Shown: piece by piece, positions 3,031 through 58,283 of the stretch | How the letters are laid out: each line of letters starts with the position of its first letter | Numbering within the stretch: position 1 is the first letter of the stretch | Assembly: GCA_041661005.1 (NCBI GenBank) | Contig: JBAZVG010000001.1 | Location: 543,515 to 607,514, forward strand | Origin: Minisyncoccota bacterium | GTDB lineage: Bacteria > Patescibacteriota > Minisyncoccia > Phycocordibacterales > UBA9973 | Direction of reading: 5' to 3' | Length of the DNA: 64,000 nt | Translations under genes and position numbers: made by a program | The notes under the pieces: model-generated | Database searches by the model: none | What the model saw: only the letters and a program-made list of their open reading frames with translations | Told to the model about the DNA's origin: nothing

Positions 3031-3384
3031 TTATTTCTTAGCCCCCTTTGCGTCGAGAGCGGCGGCAGTCGCTCCTTTTGCCGCATTTATTTCAGCTTCC
3101 TGTTTCTTTTGTTCAAGTTCTTTCTGCATCTTTCCGCCATGCTTTGTGAATTTCTTTGTTGGAGAAAATTCTCCCAATCTATGACCCACCATGTCTTCGG
3201 TGACCAGGACATCCACATGCACTTTGCCATTGTAAACGCCAAAAGTGAAACCAAGCATCTCGGGAGAAATGACGCAAGCCCTCTTCCATGTCTTGATGGA
3301 AGGAGTATTGAGCGGATTTTTGCCGGCAATCTTTTTTAAGAGCCTTTCATCCACGTATATTCCTTTTTTGATTGATCTTGTCAT
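3031..3384 (-). CDS. rpsS: 30S ribosomal protein S19 (with Lys/Ala-rich C-terminal extension)
   Basis: Start at internal [19 protein letters not shown]...[18 protein letters not shown] (S19 core), followed by a ~30-aa K/A-rich tail. The upstream in-frame extension in the ORF track overlaps a structured leader and is unlikely to be coding. Confidence 0.9.
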
Positions 3385-3390
3385 GTGTTT

Positions 3391-3486
3391 ATTCCCCTCT
3401 TGAGGGGTGGCTCGCTTGCGAGACGGGGTGGAAAAATACATCCACCTCCCTCCGACCAAAGTCGGAGTACTCCTCAAGAGGAGAAT
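3391..3486. repeat. Structured intergenic repeat, family A copy 1 (in the rpsS 5' leader)
   Basis: ATTCCCCTCTTGAGGGGTGG...GGTGGA-N8-TCCACCTCCC...CCGAC-caaa-GTCGG...ACTCCTCAAGAGGAGAAT. This is about 85% identical to 37083-37169. The third hairpin differs by compensatory changes (CCGAC/GTCGG here versus CCC/GGG in copy 2). The ends are near-inverted repeats. Confidence 0.7.
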
Positions 3487-3529
3487 TAATTAAAAATAGC
3501 TCGTAACGAGCTTGGTTTTATATTAGCAA

Positions 3530-3557
3530 ATATGAATAAAATGTCAACAAACAAACA
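3530..3557 (-). promoter_or_regulatory. Candidate sigma70-type promoter driving the rpsS leader (internal promoter in the S10 operon)
   Basis: Minus strand reads TTGACA-16 nt-TAATAT: -35 at 3552-3557 and -10 at 3530-3535. It lies directly after the U-tract of the upstream terminator. Confidence 0.5.
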
Positions 3558-3601: not shown

Positions 3602-3664
3602 CTACCGCCGCCGATTTGCGAACTTCTTCAAGTGTCTTGGAGAGGGTTTTTTCTTCTCTGCCAT
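3602..3664 (-). CDS. Candidate 20-codon basic mini-ORF (MAEKKKPSPRHLKKFANRRR) with a canonical Shine-Dalgarno
   Basis: GGAAGGGAGGTGAGAACC precedes the ATG (GGAGGTG 6 nt upstream). TAG stop is followed directly by the 3563-3588 terminator. It lies inside the rplB-rpsS insert and was not in the ORF track because it is under 60 aa. Confidence 0.35.
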   Translation of the reverse strand: MAEKKKPSPRHLKKFANRRR

Positions 3665-3797
3665 GGTTCTCACCTCCCTTCCGTGATCAAAAGACCACAT
3701 TGTTCGTTGTTCACTTATATTTATACAACTTACAAAAAATAACACAATACAAAAAAGTGGATAAACACAACCTCCTGAATCCCCCTTGTCAGGGAGA

Positions 3798-3830
3798 CAC
3801 CAAAAACCCTCCCTTGATAAGGGGAGGGTT
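3798..3830 (-). terminator. Intrinsic terminator directly after the rplB stop
   Basis: Minus strand reads CCCTCCCCTTATCAAGGGAGGG followed by TTTTTG. Confidence 0.6.
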
Positions 3831-23521: not shown

Positions 23522-23540
23522 AAAACAAGAAGGAAATTTT

Positions 23541-23612
23541 TGCCGGTACGGATTTTTTGAAGCTTAAAAAATCCTGAAGTTTTCGGCTCGTCAGCCTCAA
23601 AACCCCTTAAAA
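23541..23612 (-). repeat. Structured repeat, family C copy a (inverted orientation; rpmB / helicase convergent 3' region)
   Basis: Reverse complement reads GGGGTTTTGAG-GCTGACGAGCC-GAAAACTTCAGGATTTTTTAAGCTTCAAAAAATCCGTACCGG. Matches 27389-27455 and 37694-37787 with compensatory changes in the first hairpin. Confidence 0.7.
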
Positions 23613-23642
23613 ACTTCCTTCTTATTTTCTATCTACGGAAAT

Positions 23643-25028
23643 CTACACTGGCACGAAAGTCAGCGCTGTGCCAGCTTTGCCACTTCGGCCGGTTCGGCCG
23701 ATACGATGCACATAGGTGTCGTAAGTTTGAGGCACATCATAGTTTATAACGTGTGTAACATCTGGAATATCAAGCCCCCTAGCGGCAACATCAGTCGCAA
23801 TCAAAATATTAATTTTATCTTGTTTAAATGAATCCAAAATGCGAATACGTTCACGACTTCTTTTGTCACCATGAATTCCGCCCACTTTGAATCCCATTGT
23901 GTGTAATTCTTTGGCGAGCGTATCCACGCTATGTTTCATCTCGCGGAAAATTAAAACCTTTTGGGTCGGACCGCTTGCCCCGCCGTGGCGTGGGTCTTTT
24001 TTCAAGACTTCATGCAACTTTTCTAACTTTTCTTCTTTGGTACGCACGCGAATTACGTCTTGATCAATATTTTTCGCCGTCTCGCCAGAGACGACAGAAA
24101 TAAAAGCTGGATCTTTCAAATATTGCTCAGTCATTTTTCTAATTTCTGGAGAAAGAGTCGCTGAAAAGAAAAGGGTTTGGCGTTCCTTTGCTGTCTTCCC
24201 TATTATAAACACCATATCATCTCGGAATCCCATATCAAGCATTCTGTCAGCTTCATCTAGCACGACACTGTGGCAAGTCGACAAGTCTAAAACTTTTTTC
24301 TCAATCAAGTCTCGCAAACGTCCGGGTGTGCCGATGACAAACGAAACTCCGAGCTTTATTTCCCTAATTTGTTTCATTATCGGCAATCCACCCACACATG
24401 CGACGGAAAACATCCCAAATCCAAAAGCTAGAGTTTTAAAATCACTTTCTATCTGAAGCGCGAGTTCACGAGTCGGCGCCATTATTAAAACTGTCTCTCT
24501 TTTATTTTGTCCTTTTGTTTTAGAAATTTTCTCAATTAAGGGAAGCAAGAAAGCTGCAGTTTTTCCTGTGCCAGTATTTGCCATACCAAAGACATCTTTG
24601 CCGGCTAAAATCGTCGGTATTGCTTGATCTTGAATTGGCCTAGGATTTTCAAAACCAGCTCCTTTTATATTTTTATGAAGTTGTGGATTAAAAGGAAAAT
24701 CGAGAAATGTGTGTCGGGAAACATAAGGTTTTTCCTCCACTCGAACACCTTTTTTAATGAAACGCGAAAAATCTATCCGTTCACCACGAGATCTCTTATT
24801 GCTTGAACGTCTAAAATTGCCCCCGCCTGCAACGCTATGCGTAGCATTGCGGGCAGGTCCAAAACGAGGACGAGAATTATTAAACCTGCCTCGACTTGCG
24901 CTGGACAAGGCGGGTTTTCCACTGCTTGAGTTGTATTTTGCTTTGTGAGCAAAAGTATGACTGCTAAATTTTTTCGGGTTAGCCGAATGGCTCGCCCGTA
25001 GGGCTATGCCCGAGGGATGTTTATACAT
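23643..25028 (-). CDS. DEAD-box ATP-dependent RNA helicase with ~110-aa R/S/G-rich N-terminal region
   Basis: Q motif (FENPRPIQ), motif I (GMANTGTGKT), DEAD (VLDEADRM), SAT, HRIGRTGR. The first ~20 codons overlap a family D mini-palindrome, so the true start is uncertain. Confidence 0.85.
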   Translation of the reverse strand: MYKHPSGIALRASHSANPKKFSSHTFAHKAKYNSSSGKPALSSASRGRFNNSRPRFGPARNATHSVAGGGNFRRSSNKRSRGERIDFSRFIKKGVRVEEKPYVSRHTFLDFPFNPQLHKNIKGAGFENPRPIQDQAIPTILAGKDVFGMANTGTGKTAAFLLPLIEKISKTKGQNKRETVLIMAPTRELALQIESDFKTLAFGFGMFSVACVGGLPIMKQIREIKLGVSFVIGTPGRLRDLIEKKVLDLSTCHSVVLDEADRMLDMGFRDDMVFIIGKTAKERQTLFFSATLSPEIRKMTEQYLKDPAFISVVSGETAKNIDQDVIRVRTKEEKLEKLHEVLKKDPRHGGASGPTQKVLIFREMKHSVDTLAKELHTMGFKVGGIHGDKRSRERIRILDSFKQDKINILIATDVAARGLDIPDVTHVINYDVPQTYDTYVHRIGRTGRSGKAGTALTFVPV

Positions 25029-27360: not shown

Positions 27361-27388
27361 AAAACAAAATTTTTAAAATATAACTTTT

Positions 27389-27455
27389 GGAGGGGTTTTG
27401 AGCGCGACGGCGCGAAAACTTCAGGATTTTTTAAGCTTCAAAAAATCCGTACCGG
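27389..27455 (+). repeat. Structured repeat, family C copy b
   Basis: GGAGGGGTTTTGAG-CGCGACGGCGCG-AAAACTTCAGGATTTTTTAAGCTTCAAAAAATCCGTACCGG. Confidence 0.7.
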
Positions 27456-27482
27456 AAAAAGTTCATATTTTAAAAATTTTGT

Positions 27483-30876: not shown

Positions 30877-31062
30877 TTACAGCAAAATTATTTTTTCCAA
30901 ACCTTTTGAAAAAATAAAATCGAAAATACCCAAATAATACGCTACGATGACAGACAAGACTATGACAATCAAAGTATAATAAAAGGTTTGGCTCCTGTTT
31001 GGCCAAATCACGTGCTTCAATTCTGTCTTTGTTTCTTTAAAATATTCAGTAATTTTTGACAT
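30877..31062 (-). CDS. secE: Preprotein translocase subunit SecE
   Basis: 61 aa, single TM helix, located upstream of nusG. Confidence 0.75.
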   Translation of the reverse strand: MSKITEYFKETKTELKHVIWPNRSQTFYYTLIVIVLSVIVAYYLGIFDFIFSKGLEKIILL

Positions 31063-31140
31063 CCCATTAGAAAATTAAAATAATAAACTTCAACTTTTTT
31101 ACAAGTTCCCTGATTTTCTAACGGGACAAGTAAATTCTTT
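31063..31140 (-). promoter_or_regulatory. Conserved ~75-nt promoter/5'UTR block shared by secE and ruvX
   Basis: Minus strand reads TACTTGTCCCGTTAGAAAATCAGGGAACTTGTAAAAAA...TTATTATTTTAATTTTCTAATGGG-ATG. The ruvX upstream reads TACTTGTCCCGTTAAAAAATCAGCGGACATGTGGAAAG...TTATTATTTTAATTTTTTAATAGG-ATG. Confidence 0.5.
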
Positions 31141-37082: not shown

Positions 37083-37169
37083 ATTTTAATAATTCCCCTC
37101 TTGAGGGGTGGCGTTTATGCCGGGGTGGATATAATTCGTCCACCTCCCCCCTAAAGGGTACTCCTCAAA
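37083..37169. repeat. Structured intergenic repeat, family A copy 2 (between rplJ and rplL)
   Basis: ATTCCCCTCTTGAGGGGTGG...GGTGGA-N8-TCCACCTCCCC-CCTAAAGGG-TACTCCTCAAAGAGGAGAAT. See copy 1 at 3391-3486. Confidence 0.7.
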
Positions 37170-37178
37170 GAGGAGAAT

Positions 37179-37658
37179 CTATTTCCCTTTCGCTACTTCA
37201 CCAACCGCGATAGCTAAACGTTGCATCGGACTCTTGAGTAAGAATGCAAGTTTCGAAAGCAAAACTTCTTTCGAAGGTATCATCGCTAGCTCCATCATTT
37301 TTGCGCCGGTGATAAATTTCCCTTCAAAAATCCCTCCTAAAATATTCAGCATCCCCTTGTGGGTTTTCTGAAAATTATAGATTTCACGCGGTCCCGCTAT
37401 TTCATCCTTTGAATACGCGATAGCAACTTCTCCTTCAAGATCCGGAATTTCGCCTTCCGCTTTTCCTTTCAATGCTCGAGCAAGAAGGGTTTTTCTGGAA
37501 ACTTTATAGCCTACTCCACCTGAACGAAGGTCCCGACGAAGTATAGTCTCATCGCTGACTTTCAAACCATGAAAATTCACGAAAACTAAAGACTCAGATT
37601 CTTTGATCACTCCCTCAAGATCTTTTACTATTTCTTCTTTTTTTGATTTTTGTAACAT
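37179..37658 (-). CDS. rplJ: 50S ribosomal protein L10
   Basis: 159 aa in the rplJ-rplL arrangement. The L10 fold is recognisable (MLQKSKKEEIVKDLEGVIKESESLVFVNFHGLKV...). Confidence 0.85.
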   Translation of the reverse strand: MLQKSKKEEIVKDLEGVIKESESLVFVNFHGLKVSDETILRRDLRSGGVGYKVSRKTLLARALKGKAEGEIPDLEGEVAIAYSKDEIAGPREIYNFQKTHKGMLNILGGIFEGKFITGAKMMELAMIPSKEVLLSKLAFLLKSPMQRLAIAVGEVAKGK

Positions 37659-37693: not shown

Positions 37694-37787
37694 TGAAGGG
37701 GTTTCGAGGCTGTCGAGCCGAGAACTTCCCTTGGCCGTCCCGGCACGGGCGAGGCAGGATTTTTTAAGCTTAAAAAAATCCGTACCG
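37694..37787 (+). repeat. Structured repeat, family C copy c (with a 27-nt internal insertion)
   Basis: GAAGGGGTTTCGAG-GCTGTCGAGCC-GAGAACTTCC[insert CTTGGCCGTCCCGGCACGGGCGAGGC]AGGATTTTTTAAGCTTAAAAAAATCCGTACCG. Confidence 0.65.
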
Positions 37788-37799
37788 AAAAAAAATTGA

Positions 37800-37990
37800 T
37801 GTTGATAAAGTTTTAACTAAAAAAACGGCTTTCGCCGTCAAAGATATCGACCCCGCCTTGACTCGCATAGGCGAGGCAGGCCACTAAATAGGCTATAACA
37901 AAGATTTATCTTTGTTCGCCCGTTCCGACTATGTCGGAATTAGGGACTTATTAAGACCTTACGGTCGCCTATCTTCTTTGCGGTATTTAC
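37800..37990. other. GC-rich multi-hairpin non-coding region (candidate structured RNA)
   Basis: Successive hairpins ACGGC-TTTC-GCCGT, GCCT..CTCGC-ATAG-GCGAG..AGGC and TTCCGAC-TAT-GTCGGAA. No ORF. GC-rich relative to surroundings. The motif GGCGAGGCAGG recurs at 37748 and 37869. Confidence 0.3.
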
Positions 37991-40239: not shown

Positions 40240-41280
40240 CTAAATCAAATTAACTTCTGAGGTAAGTTCAAGACCAAATTTTTCTTTTACATCAACGATG
40301 ATTTTATTTGCCAGAGCCAACACTTCTTCTCCTTTTGCTTTACCATAATTTACCAAAACTAACGCTTGTTTTTCATGGACGCCAACATTTCCAAGCCTTT
40401 GTCCTTTCCACCCACATTGTTCGATCAACCATCCAGCTGGGATTTTGACAAGATTATCTTCTTCAAAATACGGCATTTCCGGATATGCTTTTTGCAGTTT
40501 TTTTAATTCCTCCGGTTGTACAAAAATATTTTTAAAAAAACTACCTGCGTTAGGAATGCTAACCGGATCTGGAAGTTTACTCCTGCGTATAGCAGAAACC
40601 GCATTGCTTATATCCCTCGGCCGTAGCCCTACGGGCGAGTCCTTTAAACTTCTGACTTCAATTTTATTTTTCTCTAAATAATCCTGTAAAATTTTATAAG
40701 TTACATTTTTATTTTCTTTTTTACTTAATCGAAGAGTTGTCGCGATAATAAAATATTTTTCCTTTAATTCATTTTTAAAAATACTATCTCGGTAGCCAAG
40801 TTTGCATTCTTCTTTGCTGAAAACCATCTTTTCTCCAGTAATAATATTAATCGTCTCGACATTTTCTAATACATTTTTGAGCTCGACTCCATACGCTCCG
40901 ATATTTTGCATCGGCGCTGCGCCGACTGTCCCCGGGATAAGCGCCAAATTCTCGATGCCCCACAAATCACGTTCCACTGCAAAAGTCACAAGATCGTGCC
41001 AAATCTCTCCGCCCATGGCGCGAACCATAACGGTTTCAGAATTTTCTGATAGAATCTCAATACCTTTCAATTTATTTAAAACAACTAAACCATCGAAATC
41101 TTTAGTAAACAAAACATTGCTCCCTCCGCCGAGAAATAATTTATTGCTGTTTTGAAACTCTTTCGTAGTCAAAAGTTCTTTTAAATCGGCCTCATTCGCG
41201 ATTTCTACAAAAAATTTAGCATTCACCGAAATGCTAAAAGTGTTTAACTTTGACAAATTGTAGTTGTGCTCTATTTTCAC
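40240..41280 (-). CDS. murB: UDP-N-acetylenolpyruvoylglucosamine reductase
   Basis: 346 aa with an FAD-binding PCMH domain (LFLGGGSNVLF) and the MurB C-terminal KLPDP...GSFFKN motif. Contains an in-frame copy of the family D mini-palindrome at 40614-40639 encoding DSPVGLRPRD. Confidence 0.85.
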   Translation of the reverse strand: MKIEHNYNLSKLNTFSISVNAKFFVEIANEADLKELLTTKEFQNSNKLFLGGGSNVLFTKDFDGLVVLNKLKGIEILSENSETVMVRAMGGEIWHDLVTFAVERDLWGIENLALIPGTVGAAPMQNIGAYGVELKNVLENVETINIITGEKMVFSKEECKLGYRDSIFKNELKEKYFIIATTLRLSKKENKNVTYKILQDYLEKNKIEVRSLKDSPVGLRPRDISNAVSAIRRSKLPDPVSIPNAGSFFKNIFVQPEELKKLQKAYPEMPYFEEDNLVKIPAGWLIEQCGWKGQRLGNVGVHEKQALVLVNYGKAKGEEVLALANKIIVDVKEKFGLELTSEVNLI

Positions 41281-55754: not shown

Positions 55755-56195
55755 TCAAATTTTTTGATTCTTTCTATCCAAATATCTTTGTAAGATTATT
55801 GCAGCTGCCTGCGCGTCAATCCGTCCGCTTTTTATTTGCTTTACTTTACTGTGCGCTTGGGACGGATTTAATCCCGCCTTGCTATCTTTCCCTCGCCTAG
55901 CTTCGACTGAAGTCAAAAATTCTTTTTGTTTATGAATGGGCAGTTTAAATTTCTCCTCAAGTTCTAAAATAAAGACTTCTATCCTCCCCGACAGCGCATT
56001 TAATTTTCCAGAAAAATCTACCGACTCCCCTATTATTATTTCTCCAATATTTTCTTGTTCTATGATCTCGCAGAATTTTTTCATGACATTCGAATAATTC
56101 AATATTATTTCTTTCGGAAAAGCAAAAACTCCATTTTCGTCCGAAATAGCCACCCCTATCCTTTTTGTTCCATAATCAATGCCCAGAAATTTCAT
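55755..56195 (-). CDS. ruvX: Holliday-junction resolvase-like protein RuvX/YqgF
   Basis: 146 aa with MKFLGIDYGTKRIGVAISD..., RNase H-like fold. Confidence 0.85.
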   Translation of the reverse strand: MKFLGIDYGTKRIGVAISDENGVFAFPKEIILNYSNVMKKFCEIIEQENIGEIIIGESVDFSGKLNALSGRIEVFILELEEKFKLPIHKQKEFLTSVEARRGKDSKAGLNPSQAHSKVKQIKSGRIDAQAAAIILQRYLDRKNQKI

Positions 56196-56280
56196 CCTAT
56201 TAAAAAATTAAAATAATAATGCTTACTCTTTCCACATGTCCGCTGATTTTTTAACGGGACAAGTATTTTAGATACTAGCA

Positions 56281-57926: not shown

Positions 57927-58283
57927 TTTAACGTCTGATTAAGCCTTATTCCTCAACAACCAGTTCCAACAGCGTACCCCTCGGTCGTAGCCCTACGGGT
58001 GAGACAAACTGCCTTCGCCTGCCAAAAGGTTTGTAAAGACCACATATATTGTTACACTGTAAAAAAAATAGACAAAAGATATCTAATCTGTTATACTAGC
58101 GGAGTTGAATTTTAGAAATTTATTTTAATTCGGTTTAGGGGAATATTCCATATATTATGAAGTGTTTAAAGCAAAATTTTCCACGCCACGGCGAGGTAAA
58201 TAAAATCTTTTTTAACGTACGCTTTGGGCTAGGGACAAATCCATAAATATAGGGACATGTTCTTGTAAGCTGACATAAAGCTT

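Follow-up and report, generated by a model that had tools for sequence, protein, structure and literature searches.

Dispersed palindromic elements ahead of rpsS and rplL in a Patescibacteria genome are likely mobile DNA with relatives that flank DUF559 nuclease genes

Introduction

Two genes for ribosomal proteins, rpsS and rplL, are preceded by similar structured sequences in a 64-kb stretch of a Candidatus Paceibacterota/Nomurabacteria-like genome (the window, by which we mean all 64,000 nucleotides analyzed). The locus raises the question of whether these sequences control r-protein synthesis or arrived as mobile DNA. An initial annotation of the window had offered both readings, a shared cis-regulatory leader or r-protein autoregulatory site on the one hand and a MITE-like element that landed twice on the other.

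Results

Two copies of one element in the window

A covariance model (R1) built from 27 family members and run over the 64-kb window recovered two copies and none other; the third-best score was 19 bits. Copy 1 (96 nt; 91.4 bits, E = 6e-23) occupies 3391..3486 on the minus strand, in the 5′ untranslated region of rpsS (S19; 3031..3384, minus strand), with its 3′ end 6 nt ahead of the ATG at 3384. The rpsS ORF has the translation MTRSIKKG..., and its product is 92% identical to the L111 homologue. Copy 2 (87 nt; 84.8 bits, E = 4e-21) lies at 37092..37178 on the minus strand; it begins where the rplJ stop codon (37179-37181) ends, and 29 nt separate its far end from the rplL ATG (37062). The product of the translated rplL ORF (L7/L12; 36697..37062, minus strand) shares 81-85% identity with Nomurabacteria homologues, and that of its upstream neighbor rplJ (L10; 37179..37658, minus strand), the gene whose stop codon abuts copy 2, is 100% identical to MFA6077068.1, the L10 protein of a Ca. 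Paceibacterota MAG. The initial annotation had placed copy 1 exactly but copy 2 at 37083-37169, a shift of 9 nt; its statement that both copies lie upstream of r-protein starts on the coding strand holds. Both are intergenic, and neither falls inside coding DNA.

The 17-mer at the left end occurs twice in the window versus 0.05 occurrences expected. The copies agree in 78 of 99 aligned columns (79%), or in 93% when gapped columns are left out, so that the earlier figure of ~85% identity is fair. At 21% divergence the window copies are old, a point against the mobile reading.

Upstream of copy 1, a promoter-like TTGACA-16-TAATAT (3520..3547, minus strand; 10 of 12 matches, with TG) is a consensus match of the kind expected once by chance in that region; if this promoter is used, copy 1 would lie inside a rpsS leader of ~130 nt. 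The sole purine-rich stretch ahead of the rpsS AUG, the SD-like GAGGGG, is part of the terminal stem, as had been proposed. The rplL ATG, 29 nt from the end of copy 2, has no SD nearby. A scan for intrinsic terminators (a G+C-rich hairpin followed by a U tract) flagged neither copy, the 3′ flanks being AATAAACAC for copy 1 and TATTAAAATT for copy 2. Rfam returned no relevant family at the gathering threshold for the whole window, or at E values up to 10 for both loci.

Architecture and predicted fold

The element consists of two inverted half elements of ~45 nt and a short joining loop. Each half runs from ATTCCCCTCTTGAGGGGTGG through a variable hairpin to ACGGGGTGGA, and so comprises an invariant hairpin, a freely varying hairpin, and a GGGGTGG-type motif after each. 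In copy 1, the L-type half (3391..3432) is made up of ATTCCCCTCTTGAGGGGTGG (3391-3410), the variable hairpin CTCGCTTGCGAG (3411-3422), and ACGGGGTGGA (3423-3432); a loop of 8 nt (3433-3440) leads to the inverted R-type half (3441..3486), with TCCACCTCCC (3441-3450), the variable hairpin TCCGACCAAAGTCGGA (3451-3466), and GTACTCCTCAAGAGGAGAAT (3467-3486). In copy 2, ATTCCCCTCTTGAGGGGTGG, the hairpin GGCGTTTATGCC (37110-37121), and GGGGTGGA (37122-37129) form the L-type half (37092..37129), and a loop of 9 nt (37130-37138) precedes the inverted R-type half (37139..37178), which contains TCCACCTCCC, the hairpin CCCTAAAGGG (37149-37158), and GTACTCCTCAAAGAGGAGAAT. The termini, ATTCCCCTCTTGAGG... 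and ...CCTCAAGAGGAGAAT, pair over ~15 bp and are near-inverted, as first described. The GGTGGA-N8-TCCACC hairpin reported for both copies is present as such in copy 1, but its spacer in copy 2 is N9. At 96 and 87 nt, with terminal inverted repeats and without a transposase ORF, both copies are of MITE size.

The predicted fold of copy 1 has an energy of −55.2 kcal/mol (z = −7.0 versus shuffles) and that of copy 2 an energy of −43.3 kcal/mol (z = −4.8), so the stable structure anticipated in the initial annotation is borne out. The opposite strands yield −53.9 and −43.2 kcal/mol, respectively. Equal stability of both strands is what a DNA palindrome shows; it is no argument for a strand-specific RNA.

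The variable hairpin exists in at least 92 distinct versions, with a mean perfect stem of 3.95 bp compared to 1.72±0.09 bp in shuffles, stems mostly of 3-7 bp, and loops mostly of 3-4 nt. GNA triloops are strongly enriched on one strand (33 versus 3); stem G-U versus A-C counts (13 versus 2) are too lineage-dependent for strand assignment. Because MAFFT misaligned the variable hairpins of full-length copies, the covariation table from that alignment was left unused for them. The compensatory difference noted earlier between the window copies is real (CTCCGAC..GTCGGAG versus CCC..GGG), but it does not signal r-protein regulation, being general to the palindromic family in all contexts and phyla. 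Even between distant phyla the half element hardly differs, whereas its inner hairpin shows free covariation; this combination argues for recognition by a conserved protein. Singlets and L-L doublets of the half element are found in other phyla.

Dispersal of the family in other genomes and phyla

The family is dispersed, occupies unrelated contexts, is variably present at orthologous sites, and occurs in frame inside conserved genes. We found 27 further full-length copies of 80-98 nt in varied contexts, and several related MAGs hold at least 2-7 copies each. An exact 17-mer scan returned at least 119 loci, with ~70 chance matches expected, and the half element occurs at more than 100 loci in many phyla; among the matches listed, multi-copy cases come from Patescibacteria, a Thermotogaceae MAG, a Bacillota MAG, Kapabacteria, Bacteroidota isolates, and others. 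The suggestion of a MITE-like element that landed twice is thereby supported, the 80-98-nt element being found in unrelated places of many Patescibacteria genomes.

In relatives, the element stands before rplJ, rpsL, rpsF, dnaK, murB, and a pilB-like gene, and it also follows rpsO and rplB. Genes for r-proteins are the neighbors at ~7 of 23 independent sites, and half elements are found, too, in phyla and settings that have no connection to r-proteins. The ATTCTCC...GGGGAAT strand is the sense strand of the neighboring or host gene in ~24 of 27 copies.

The window copies resemble copies in other Patescibacteria genomes (91-94% identity) more than they resemble each other (79%). Copy 1 matches a copy in L113 that sits, oppositely oriented, within an RNase R gene, and copy 2 matches the L087 copy upstream of rplJ. 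The rplJ 5′ region contains the element in L010, L051, and L087 and lacks it in L053 and in the window, which differs from the relatives with upstream copies in having its element between rplJ and rplL. Conserved blocks are intact in the orthologous rplJ copies of the three genomes, which may reflect selection or gene conversion. Upstream of rplJ, at 37819-37984, there is also a distinct conserved leader, which has a terminator-like hairpin.

No consistent direct repeat indicative of a target-site duplication was found at 23 full-length copies, where duplication of the invariant "AT" is indistinguishable from conserved termini. Annotated plasmid and phage collections held no copy and IMG/VR only three exact motif matches, which gives no evidence for a phage or plasmid vector. 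Among 1310 ORFs beside the 119 loci listed, there was no shared transposase-like ORF, and the sole recurrent neighbor was DUF559. A search for an autonomous element of 1-3 kb between inverted halves likewise found none, only DUF559 units of ~0.5 kb.

Copies read in frame inside protein genes

Ten copies are open in frame, in KsgA (three genomes), PurD, PheT (two genomes), Tgt, an FAD oxidase, and two further proteins; an eleventh intragenic copy, oppositely oriented, lies within an RNB-domain (RNase II/R family) protein. In Tgt and the FAD oxidase, the Pfam match of the host protein falls into two stretches; in KsgA, PurD, and PheT, one end of the match is close to the insert; and in the RNB-domain protein it is a single stretch that spans the insert. 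Nine of the ten intragenic copies have a length of 2 mod 3, and the lengths of intergenic copies are unconstrained. These lengths, together with the lack of stop codons and with DUF559 units that are in frame with split host domains, point to read-through translation. Intron-like excision and translational hopping of the intragenic copies were set aside in view of the same lengths and open frames. The predicted element peptide in KsgA, PheT, and Tgt reads, for example, SPLEEYPLGGGG...TPQEGN.

Half elements flank DUF559 genes

Inverted half elements bracket ORFs that match PF04480 (E = 1e-19 to 1e-24) at five loci from different phyla, and truncated DUF559 remnants are present at two more loci. 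When 80 metagenome loci were picked by DUF559 protein similarity alone, 42 proved to have a correctly oriented half element, upstream (within 260 nt) at 30, downstream at 29, and on both sides at 17, compared to a chance of ~0.001 per locus. The arrangement is mixed: the gene lies between the inner ends at 37 loci, and at nine, which include all Paceibacteria cases, the outer ends face the gene. DUF559 genes of 30-40% identity in Sphingomonas, Azospirillum, Neisseria, Synechocystis, Pseudanabaena, and Photobacterium have flanking palindromes of the same grammar.

DUF559 was seen once in the protein set of the source genome. As read from the protein termini of MFA6076932.1, the N-terminus (SSTPS..HPSRGE) and the C-terminus with the stop (KFPS plus stop) of the source genome's DUF559 protein are translated half elements; for two Nomurabacteria DUF559 genes, the DNA itself begins and ends as half elements. 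DUF559 units are in frame inside split host domains, with no splicing element. Host genes named for in-frame DUF559 "domain insertion" are HsdR, HsdS, DNA methylases, fumarase, and QueA; filled and empty QueA alleles are found in L176 and L179.

Element ends are common to DUF559-encoding units, and DUF559 is a nuclease and no known transposase. To our knowledge, a PD-(D/E)XK nuclease alone is not known to perform transposition. Judging from these sequence associations, we see about an even chance that the family is generated or maintained by the small DUF559 (Vsr-like PD-(D/E)XK) nuclease. We tentatively propose, in addition, that DUF559, a very widespread family to which no function is assigned, could serve as the partner enzyme of G/C-rich palindromic repeats present throughout bacteria. 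These repeats, with a grammar of a CCCCTC..GAGGGG hairpin and GGGGTGG motifs, would perhaps include relatives of the CGTC-tagged REPs and of the Rickettsia palindromic elements (RPE), both without a known mobilizing enzyme; the ~0.5-kb DUF559 gene, bracketed by inverted halves, would sit in frame and unspliced in host genes and would spawn miniature doublets such as the two in the window, tolerated likewise in frame in essential proteins.

Discussion

Relation to known repeat families

We know of no transposase for either the present element or RPE. Both are short dispersed palindromes in small genomes, found between genes and in frame in unrelated conserved genes, where they are read as a short hydrophilic loop (RPE: PMC10969869). 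The present element, which we liken to RPE by description, differs in its sequence, in its occurrence in Patescibacteria and many other phyla, in its shorter length (80-98 nt, compared to ~100-150 nt for RPE), and in having a candidate cognate gene, DUF559, flanked by half elements.

REPs are usually lineage-specific, whereas the invariant hairpin of the present element is nearly identical across phyla, and its in-frame coding insertions are frequent. Common to this element and the REP/REPIN-RAYT system are singlet palindromes paired in inverted orientation into a hairpin doublet as the dispersed unit (PMC3116915, PMC3337134), a small nuclease gene between inverted singlets, and the lack of a visible target duplication. 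The flanked gene here is the PD-(D/E)XK Vsr-like DUF559, however, and not an HUH Y1 transposase (among the neighboring ORFs searched), and the 5′ GT(A/G)G tag is missing, with GACG/CGTC present.

The CGTC-tagged REPs (Di Nocera et al. 2013) include RPE-4, RPE-6, and Neisseria dRS3 (PMC3733652). The present element resembles them in reading CCCCGTC-hairpin-GCCA on one strand, that is, a CGTC tag and a CCA tail, in 77 of 104 versions, in forming head-to-head dimers and intragenic in-frame units, and in the overlap of phyla (Thermotogae, Bacteroidetes, Chlorobi relatives). Their stems, however, are of 8-9 bp and start with AT, with loops of 4-5 nt, whereas the stems here vary freely between 3 and 7 bp and are accompanied by GGGGTGG repeats and a further invariant hairpin, CCCCTCTTGAGGGG; the supplements of PMC3733652 contain no motif string of our element. 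Correia and ERIC MITEs are likewise small, bounded by terminal inverted repeats, and situated in operon spacers and 5′ UTRs, where they form long RNA stems that are possible RNase III substrates and can change expression (PMC10969869). Unlike the present element, they have target duplications and DDE-type parents, or none known, and they show neither an in-frame bias nor a link to DUF559.

With Vsr-like homing endonucleases (I-Bth0305I; "fractured genes", PMC2677866), the DUF559 units share a nuclease clade and the habit of selfish nuclease genes that invade conserved host genes, and VSR, DUF559, and DUF2726 have been grouped together with a group I intron homing endonuclease (PMC3424549). The homing endonucleases ride in introns or split inteins, whereas translation continues through the DUF559 unit, the translated palindromes serving as linkers. 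Searches of the literature on the DNA motif, the junction peptides, DUF559, CPR with MITE, and Vsr-like with in-frame insertion found no description of the family, and both the element family and its DUF559 link appear to be undescribed.

Regulatory leader, RNA module, or mobile element

A dedicated leader or autoregulatory site common to rpsS and rplL would bind an r-protein (L10/L12 or S19) or mask the SD. The position of both copies on the coding strand just upstream of r-protein starts, the stable fold with GAGGGG of rpsS inside a stem, and the r-protein genes adjoining ~7 of 23 independent sites in relatives (rplJ, rpsL, and rpsF; after rpsO and rplB) all speak for it, yet we consider it highly improbable. 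The same element stands before dnaK, murB, and a pilB-like gene and inside KsgA, PheT, Tgt, PurD, and RNase R; in the rplJ region its position changes among close relatives; and half elements are also known from phyla and contexts unrelated to r-proteins. The window copies are not each other's closest kin, both DNA strands fold equally well, the rplL ATG is 29 nt away with no SD nearby, no Rfam family corresponds, and a distinct conserved leader exists upstream of rplJ. The regulatory half of the initial annotation accordingly finds no support in position, kinship, or the Rfam result. Less specific is the idea of a domesticated RNA structure, which a mobile origin would allow: its sense insert would stabilize or process mRNA, through 5′ stem-loop protection or an RNase III site, or offer an SD-like GGAGG and would be kept by host-level selection. 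Presence and absence differ between close relatives, and the in-frame protein insertions could not fill such a role, so that we regard this module as unlikely, even with the orientation bias (~24 of 27 copies relative to genes) and the conserved blocks of the three orthologous rplJ copies in its favor. MITEs such as Correia and ERIC do alter mRNA processing and stability (PMC10969869), and REP elements are described as often transcribed (PMC3733652); the bias, however, could also stem from a strand-specific insertion mechanism.

Movement as a classical REP/REPIN by a RAYT (Y1 HUH transposase), with DUF559 incidental, for example as a homing-type gene that targets or is trapped between palindromes, would fit the REPIN-like doublets, the occurrence of singlets and doublets, the missing target duplication, and the two different DUF559 arrangements; the one-strand excess of GNA triloops (33 versus 3) hints at single-stranded DNA hairpins. 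This appears improbable given that DUF559 alone, and no common transposase-like ORF, recurs among the 1310 ORFs beside the 119 loci listed, that the GTAG tag is absent while 77 of 104 versions carry GACG (CGTC on the opposite strand), that CGTC-tagged REPs are reported without any transposase association (PMC3733652), and that the DUF559 link extends across phyla and across DUF559 subfamilies of 30-40% identity. The reading we favor, and hold to be likely, is that a non-autonomous palindromic mobile DNA element (MITE, REPIN doublet, or RPE-like), and not a dedicated r-protein regulator, gave rise to both window sequences. Such copies would have landed independently in two r-protein operon spacers, where they would be co-transcribed and tolerated. 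The flanking of DUF559 genes by half elements parallels that of RAYT transposase genes by REPs. Any effects on rpsS and rplL expression, through a stable 5′ structure, an SD-like GAGGGG locked in a stem, or a possible RNase III substrate, would be a by-product. Pure selfishness explains neither the orientation bias nor the r-protein adjacency, and these two features are compatible with an exapted RNA role or with insertion by a strand-specific mechanism.

Implications

Reading the "structured leader" of rpsS and rplL as mobile DNA does away with an attractive but misleading interpretation; the true conserved leader of rplJ is at another site. It also means that the tiny, streamlined genomes of the Candidate Phyla Radiation carry an RPE-like element that is read in essential enzymes (KsgA, PheT, Tgt). 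The DUF559 linkage offers a specific function, open to experiment, to a large family of orphan nucleases and makes DUF559 a candidate mover of REP and RPE classes that lack a transposase. If true, it would amount to a REP-RAYT-like partnership built on a PD-(D/E)XK nuclease, and to a new route by which a selfish nuclease gene invades coding DNA with neither an intron nor an intein.

Two copies of a bipartite palindrome flank ribosomal protein genes

The r-protein operon on the minus strand of the window runs tuf, rpsJ, rplC, rplD, rplW, rplB, a gap, rpsS, and rplV onward, and rplJ and rplL form a separate r-protein cluster on the same strand. Copy 1 of the family A element (3391–3486) ends 6 nt 5' of the rpsS ATG, and copy 2 (37092–37178) directly follows the rplJ stop codon, with 29 nt between its other end and the rplL ATG. 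The initial annotation had placed copy 1 exactly and copy 2 9 nt too low; we recovered the inverted termini, the central GGTGGA-N8/N9-TCCACC hairpin in both copies, and the compensatory hairpin difference between them that it described. The left-end 17-mer occurs twice in the window (0.05 expected), and a covariance model derived from 27 members of the family matches only these two copies (91.4 and 84.8 bits), with the next-best match at 19 bits (3779–3827). The copies are identical in 78 of 99 aligned columns (79%; 93% without gaps), with a G+C content of 53–55% versus 39% for the window. On the gene strand, the first half reads ATTCTCCTCTTGAGGAGTAC, a variable hairpin, and GGGAGGTGGA, then the loop, followed by TCCACCCCG(TC), a second variable hairpin, and (G)CCACCCCTCAAGAGGGGAAT. 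From this module order, the element consists of two inverted half elements of ~45 nt each.

The predicted fold has a terminal stem of ~15 bp closing three hairpins, with energies on the gene strand of −55.2 kcal/mol (z −7.0) for copy 1 and −43.3 kcal/mol (z −4.8) for copy 2. The complementary strand is predicted to be as stable (−53.9 and −43.2 kcal/mol); as modeled, the structure is a property of the DNA palindrome and by itself no sign of a functional RNA strand.

Upstream of copy 1, the spacer between rplB and rpsS, which are usually adjacent genes, spans 463 nt. It contains a single promoter-like site (TTGACA-16-TAATAT), a 20-codon ORF, and terminator-like hairpins. An rpsS leader of ~130 nt probably includes copy 1, and the rpsS AUG is unpaired in the predicted fold with copy 1. 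The ORF (MAEKKKPSPRHLKKFANRRR; 3602–3664, minus strand) has a strong SD (GGAGGTGA) and a terminator-like hairpin on its 3' side (3590–3561); L111, a relative, carries a different basic ORF of ~50 aa at the rplB-rpsS position. Directly after the rplB stop (3779–3830) are two small palindromes, CCCTCCC..GGGAGGG with a T run and TCTCCCTgacaAGGGGGA, which give a marginal covariance-model match (E 0.007). L111 has a full family A copy at the equivalent position, and the window palindromes are possibly a relic, or else a related element that doubles as a terminator.

The element is dispersed among relatives and is translated within genes

A search for exact matches to the 17-mer CCCCTCTTGAGGGGTGG, covering one genome for each species, returned at least 119 loci, against a chance expectation of ~70 matches in that collection; many genomes hold several copies, and the extended module is present in nearly all matches listed. 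We found 27 further full-length elements (80–98 nt), nearly all from Patescibacteria MAGs (Nomurabacteria, Paceibacterota, and some labelled Saccharibacteria). The window organism is closely related to them: Tuf and RpsS are 93% and 92% identical to those of L111, RplJ and RplL are 80–85% identical to those of Nomurabacteria MAGs, and the L10 protein is identical to MFA6077068.1 from a Ca. Paceibacterota MAG. Each window copy is nearer to a copy in a foreign genome than to its partner, copy 1 being 90.7% identical to that of L113, which lies in the opposite orientation inside an RNase R gene, and copy 2 94.3% identical to that of L087, upstream of rplJ.

Intergenic copies lie 5' of rplJ (three genomes), rpsL, rpsF, dnaK, murB, a pilB-like gene, and a deoxyhypusine-synthase-like gene, and immediately 3' of rpsO and rplB. 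A comparison of the rplJ 5' region in five genomes revealed a conserved leader with a terminal terminator-like hairpin in all five. The element follows this leader in three (L010, L051, and L087) and is absent from L053 and the window, where other sequences occupy the gap; in the window it sits between rplJ and rplL instead. The element is thus a dispersed palindromic repeat whose position is not conserved among relatives. The leader itself (37819–37984, minus strand; accgcaaagaa..cctatttagtgg..gtcgatatcttt) is common to four Nomurabacteria relatives, ends in the hairpin GACGGCgaaaGCCGT plus T7 (37825–37839), has no match in Rfam, and may represent the CPR counterpart of the L10 leader or attenuator. 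The window also contains at least three further families of small repeats: a CTCGCCCGTAGGGCTACGGCCGAG-type palindrome (24986–25014, 37725–37753, 40611–40639, and 57975–58003), an A/T-rich repeat of ~80 nt (23535–23616, 27382–27463, and 37755–37797), and a 73-nt repeat pair (31060–31132 and 56193–56265). Two of these occupy the rplJ upstream spacer, where relatives have family A.

In ten cases the copy continues the reading frame of a conserved gene, encoding the peptide SPLEEYP(L/K)GG..STP..ATPQEGN. Hosts identified for eight of these are KsgA (three genomes), PheT (two genomes), PurD, Tgt, and an FAD oxidase. An eleventh in-frame copy lies in the other orientation inside an RNB-domain (RNase II/R family) protein, where a single Pfam stretch spans the insert. 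In Tgt and the FAD oxidase, the Pfam match is split into two stretches, one on either side of the insert; in KsgA, PurD, and PheT, it ends or begins near the insert. Intragenic copies lack stop codons and have a length of 2 mod 3 in 9 of 10 cases, so that the inserts are translated rather than removed; intergenic copies represent all residues mod 3. Family A copies thus resemble Rickettsia palindromic elements, for which in-frame insertion has been described (PMC10969869). Further G/C-rich inserts that are in frame with CPR proteins, in the deoxyhypusine-synthase-like ORF of L012 (6720–7790; ..TPPSEGGE..GGVPEGQGG..) and the downstream ORF of L100 (..LPSGEGLGVRV..), look like products of related palindromic families.

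A single half element occurs across phyla

In other phyla the unit is a single half, AATTCCCCTCTTGAGGGGTGG, a variable hairpin, and (G)ACGGGGTGGA, arranged alone, in tandem, or as inverted pairs. Carriers include one Thermotogaceae MAG, one termite-gut Bacillota MAG, further groups (Kapabacteria, Ignavibacteria, Nitrospirota, Limisphaerales, and Bdellovibrionales), and, among Bacteroidota, isolates of Parasediminibacterium and Pedobacter. We counted 92 distinct versions of the inner hairpin, with a mean perfect stem of 3.95 bp, versus 1.72±0.09 bp in shuffles, and its triloops are GNA in 33 cases on one strand versus 3 on the other. GACG stands 3' of the variable hairpin in 77 of 104 versions; the opposite strand accordingly reads CGTC and also shows a CCA tail. 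These features liken the half element to CGTC-tagged REPs, which include RPE-4, RPE-6, and Neisseria dRS3, form head-to-head dimers, show in-frame intragenic cases, and as a class "apparently lacks a dedicated transposase" (Di Nocera et al., PMC3733652). Stems of the half element are shorter, and its motif is absent from the data of that study. On a Kapabacteria chromosome (OY761611.1; L027, 2600–7100), three tandem units of ~2.1 kb each contain an element of ~240 nt with diverged half elements in inverted orientation at its two boundaries.

Half elements bracket DUF559 nuclease genes

No recurring transposase-like ORF adjoins the 119 loci listed. A small ORF recurs between inverted halves ~0.5 kb apart; its product matches DUF559 (PF04480, E 1e-19 to 1e-24) and has the conserved nuclease motif IVDF..EIDG.SH. 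Carriers are Ca. Brocadia and four MAGs (one unclassified, one labelled Saccharibacteria, one of Limisphaerales, and one of Cloacimonadota), with truncated remnants in Kapaibacterium and Nitrospirota. In a reciprocal test of 80 metagenome loci picked solely by DUF559 protein similarity, a correctly oriented half lay within 260 nt upstream in 30 and an inverted half downstream in 29 (wrong orientation, 10 and 8); 17 loci had both and 42 at least one, against a chance expectation of ~0.001 per locus. The element is therefore physically associated with DUF559 genes. By their nearest halves, 37 of 82 loci had the "gene between the inner ends" and 9 had "outer ends facing the gene."

At E ≤ 1e-10 the subfamily comprises at least 7177 members, Nomurabacteria and Paceibacterota proteins among them. 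Two Nomurabacteria DUF559 genes start within a half element and stop at the TGA of the next, and one flanking half there has the same TAC and TCCGAC..GTCGGA hairpin as copy 1. The source genome's own DUF559 protein, MFA6076932.1, begins ..SSTPSFDYKVHPSRGE.. and ends ..LKFPS*, both translated half elements. In one Nomurabacteria genome (GCA_020851595.1; L204), the DUF559 gene with flanking halves lies within the secY-adk-...-map stretch of the ribosomal super-operon; here too, the family occupies a spacer of an r-protein operon.

Distant DUF559 genes (30–40% identical; L208–L213) likewise have palindromes on both sides, and these follow the same grammar, CCCCTCCCC-loop-GGGGAGGGG beside GGGGTGGGG. 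Such genes occur in Sphingomonas (between sufB and sufC), Azospirillum, N. gonorrhoeae, Synechocystis, Pseudanabaena, and Photobacterium, suggesting that nuclease and palindromes are associated throughout the family. The N. gonorrhoeae locus matches the sequence of 3HRL, an "endonuclease-like protein" that is the nearest solved structure to DUF559, and Vsr and a homing endonuclease fall in the same clade as DUF559 (PMC3424549).

Of the 80 metagenome loci, 22 have the DUF559 unit embedded in an ORF of >250 aa that is open through the flanking halves, with junction peptides NSP(P)LEGW and TP(P)(Q/K)EGN. Hosts are HsdR (five loci, one site; e.g., L138, L148, L151, and L159), HsdS (e.g., L120, L133, and L135), DNA methylases, fumarase (e.g., L149), and QueA (L176 and L179, two related contigs that differ in the site of the unit and also have short remnants). 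In fumarase (Lyase_1) and QueA (Queuosine_synth), the nuclease separates two stretches of host Pfam match, and in HsdR and HsdS the host domains are confined to one side. These units in large host genes (L120–L199) showed no intron or intein features.

Discussion

For the repeats before rpsS and rplL, the initial annotation proposed a shared cis-regulatory leader, an autoregulatory protein-binding site, or a MITE-like element that had inserted twice. Measured against its own refuting criterion, copies are many, vary in position, and are in some cases intragenic, and we therefore reject a dedicated r-protein leader, yet orientation is non-random and the hairpins covary. The element would instead be selfish DNA persisting where harm is small. 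In the window it would be co-transcribed and fold into a stable three-way structure, with a possible incidental effect on rpsS translation, since an SD-like GAGGGG lies within the stem, or on how the mRNA is processed, an effect described for elements of the Correia and ERIC types (PMC10969869). By analogy with RAYT and REP/REPIN (PMC3116915, PMC3337134), chances are about equal for and against DUF559 recognising the hairpin and GGGGTGG module and making DNA breaks that spread or maintain the repeats. The orientation bias relative to genes (~24 of 27 copies), the enrichment of r-protein-adjoining sites (~7 of 23 independent sites), the intact conserved blocks of orthologous copies, the lack of visible target duplication at element copies, and the two different arrangements of halves around DUF559 still allow for strand-specific insertion or for a secondary use of the RNA by the host.

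Palindromic mini-elements have precedents, as do in-frame "protein-coding palindromes." In the searchable literature and Rfam, we found no description of this palindrome family, of its presence in CPR genomes, including in essential enzymes, or of the DUF559-repeat link. With the regulatory reading rejected, the interest of the two window copies is as a lead to this family.
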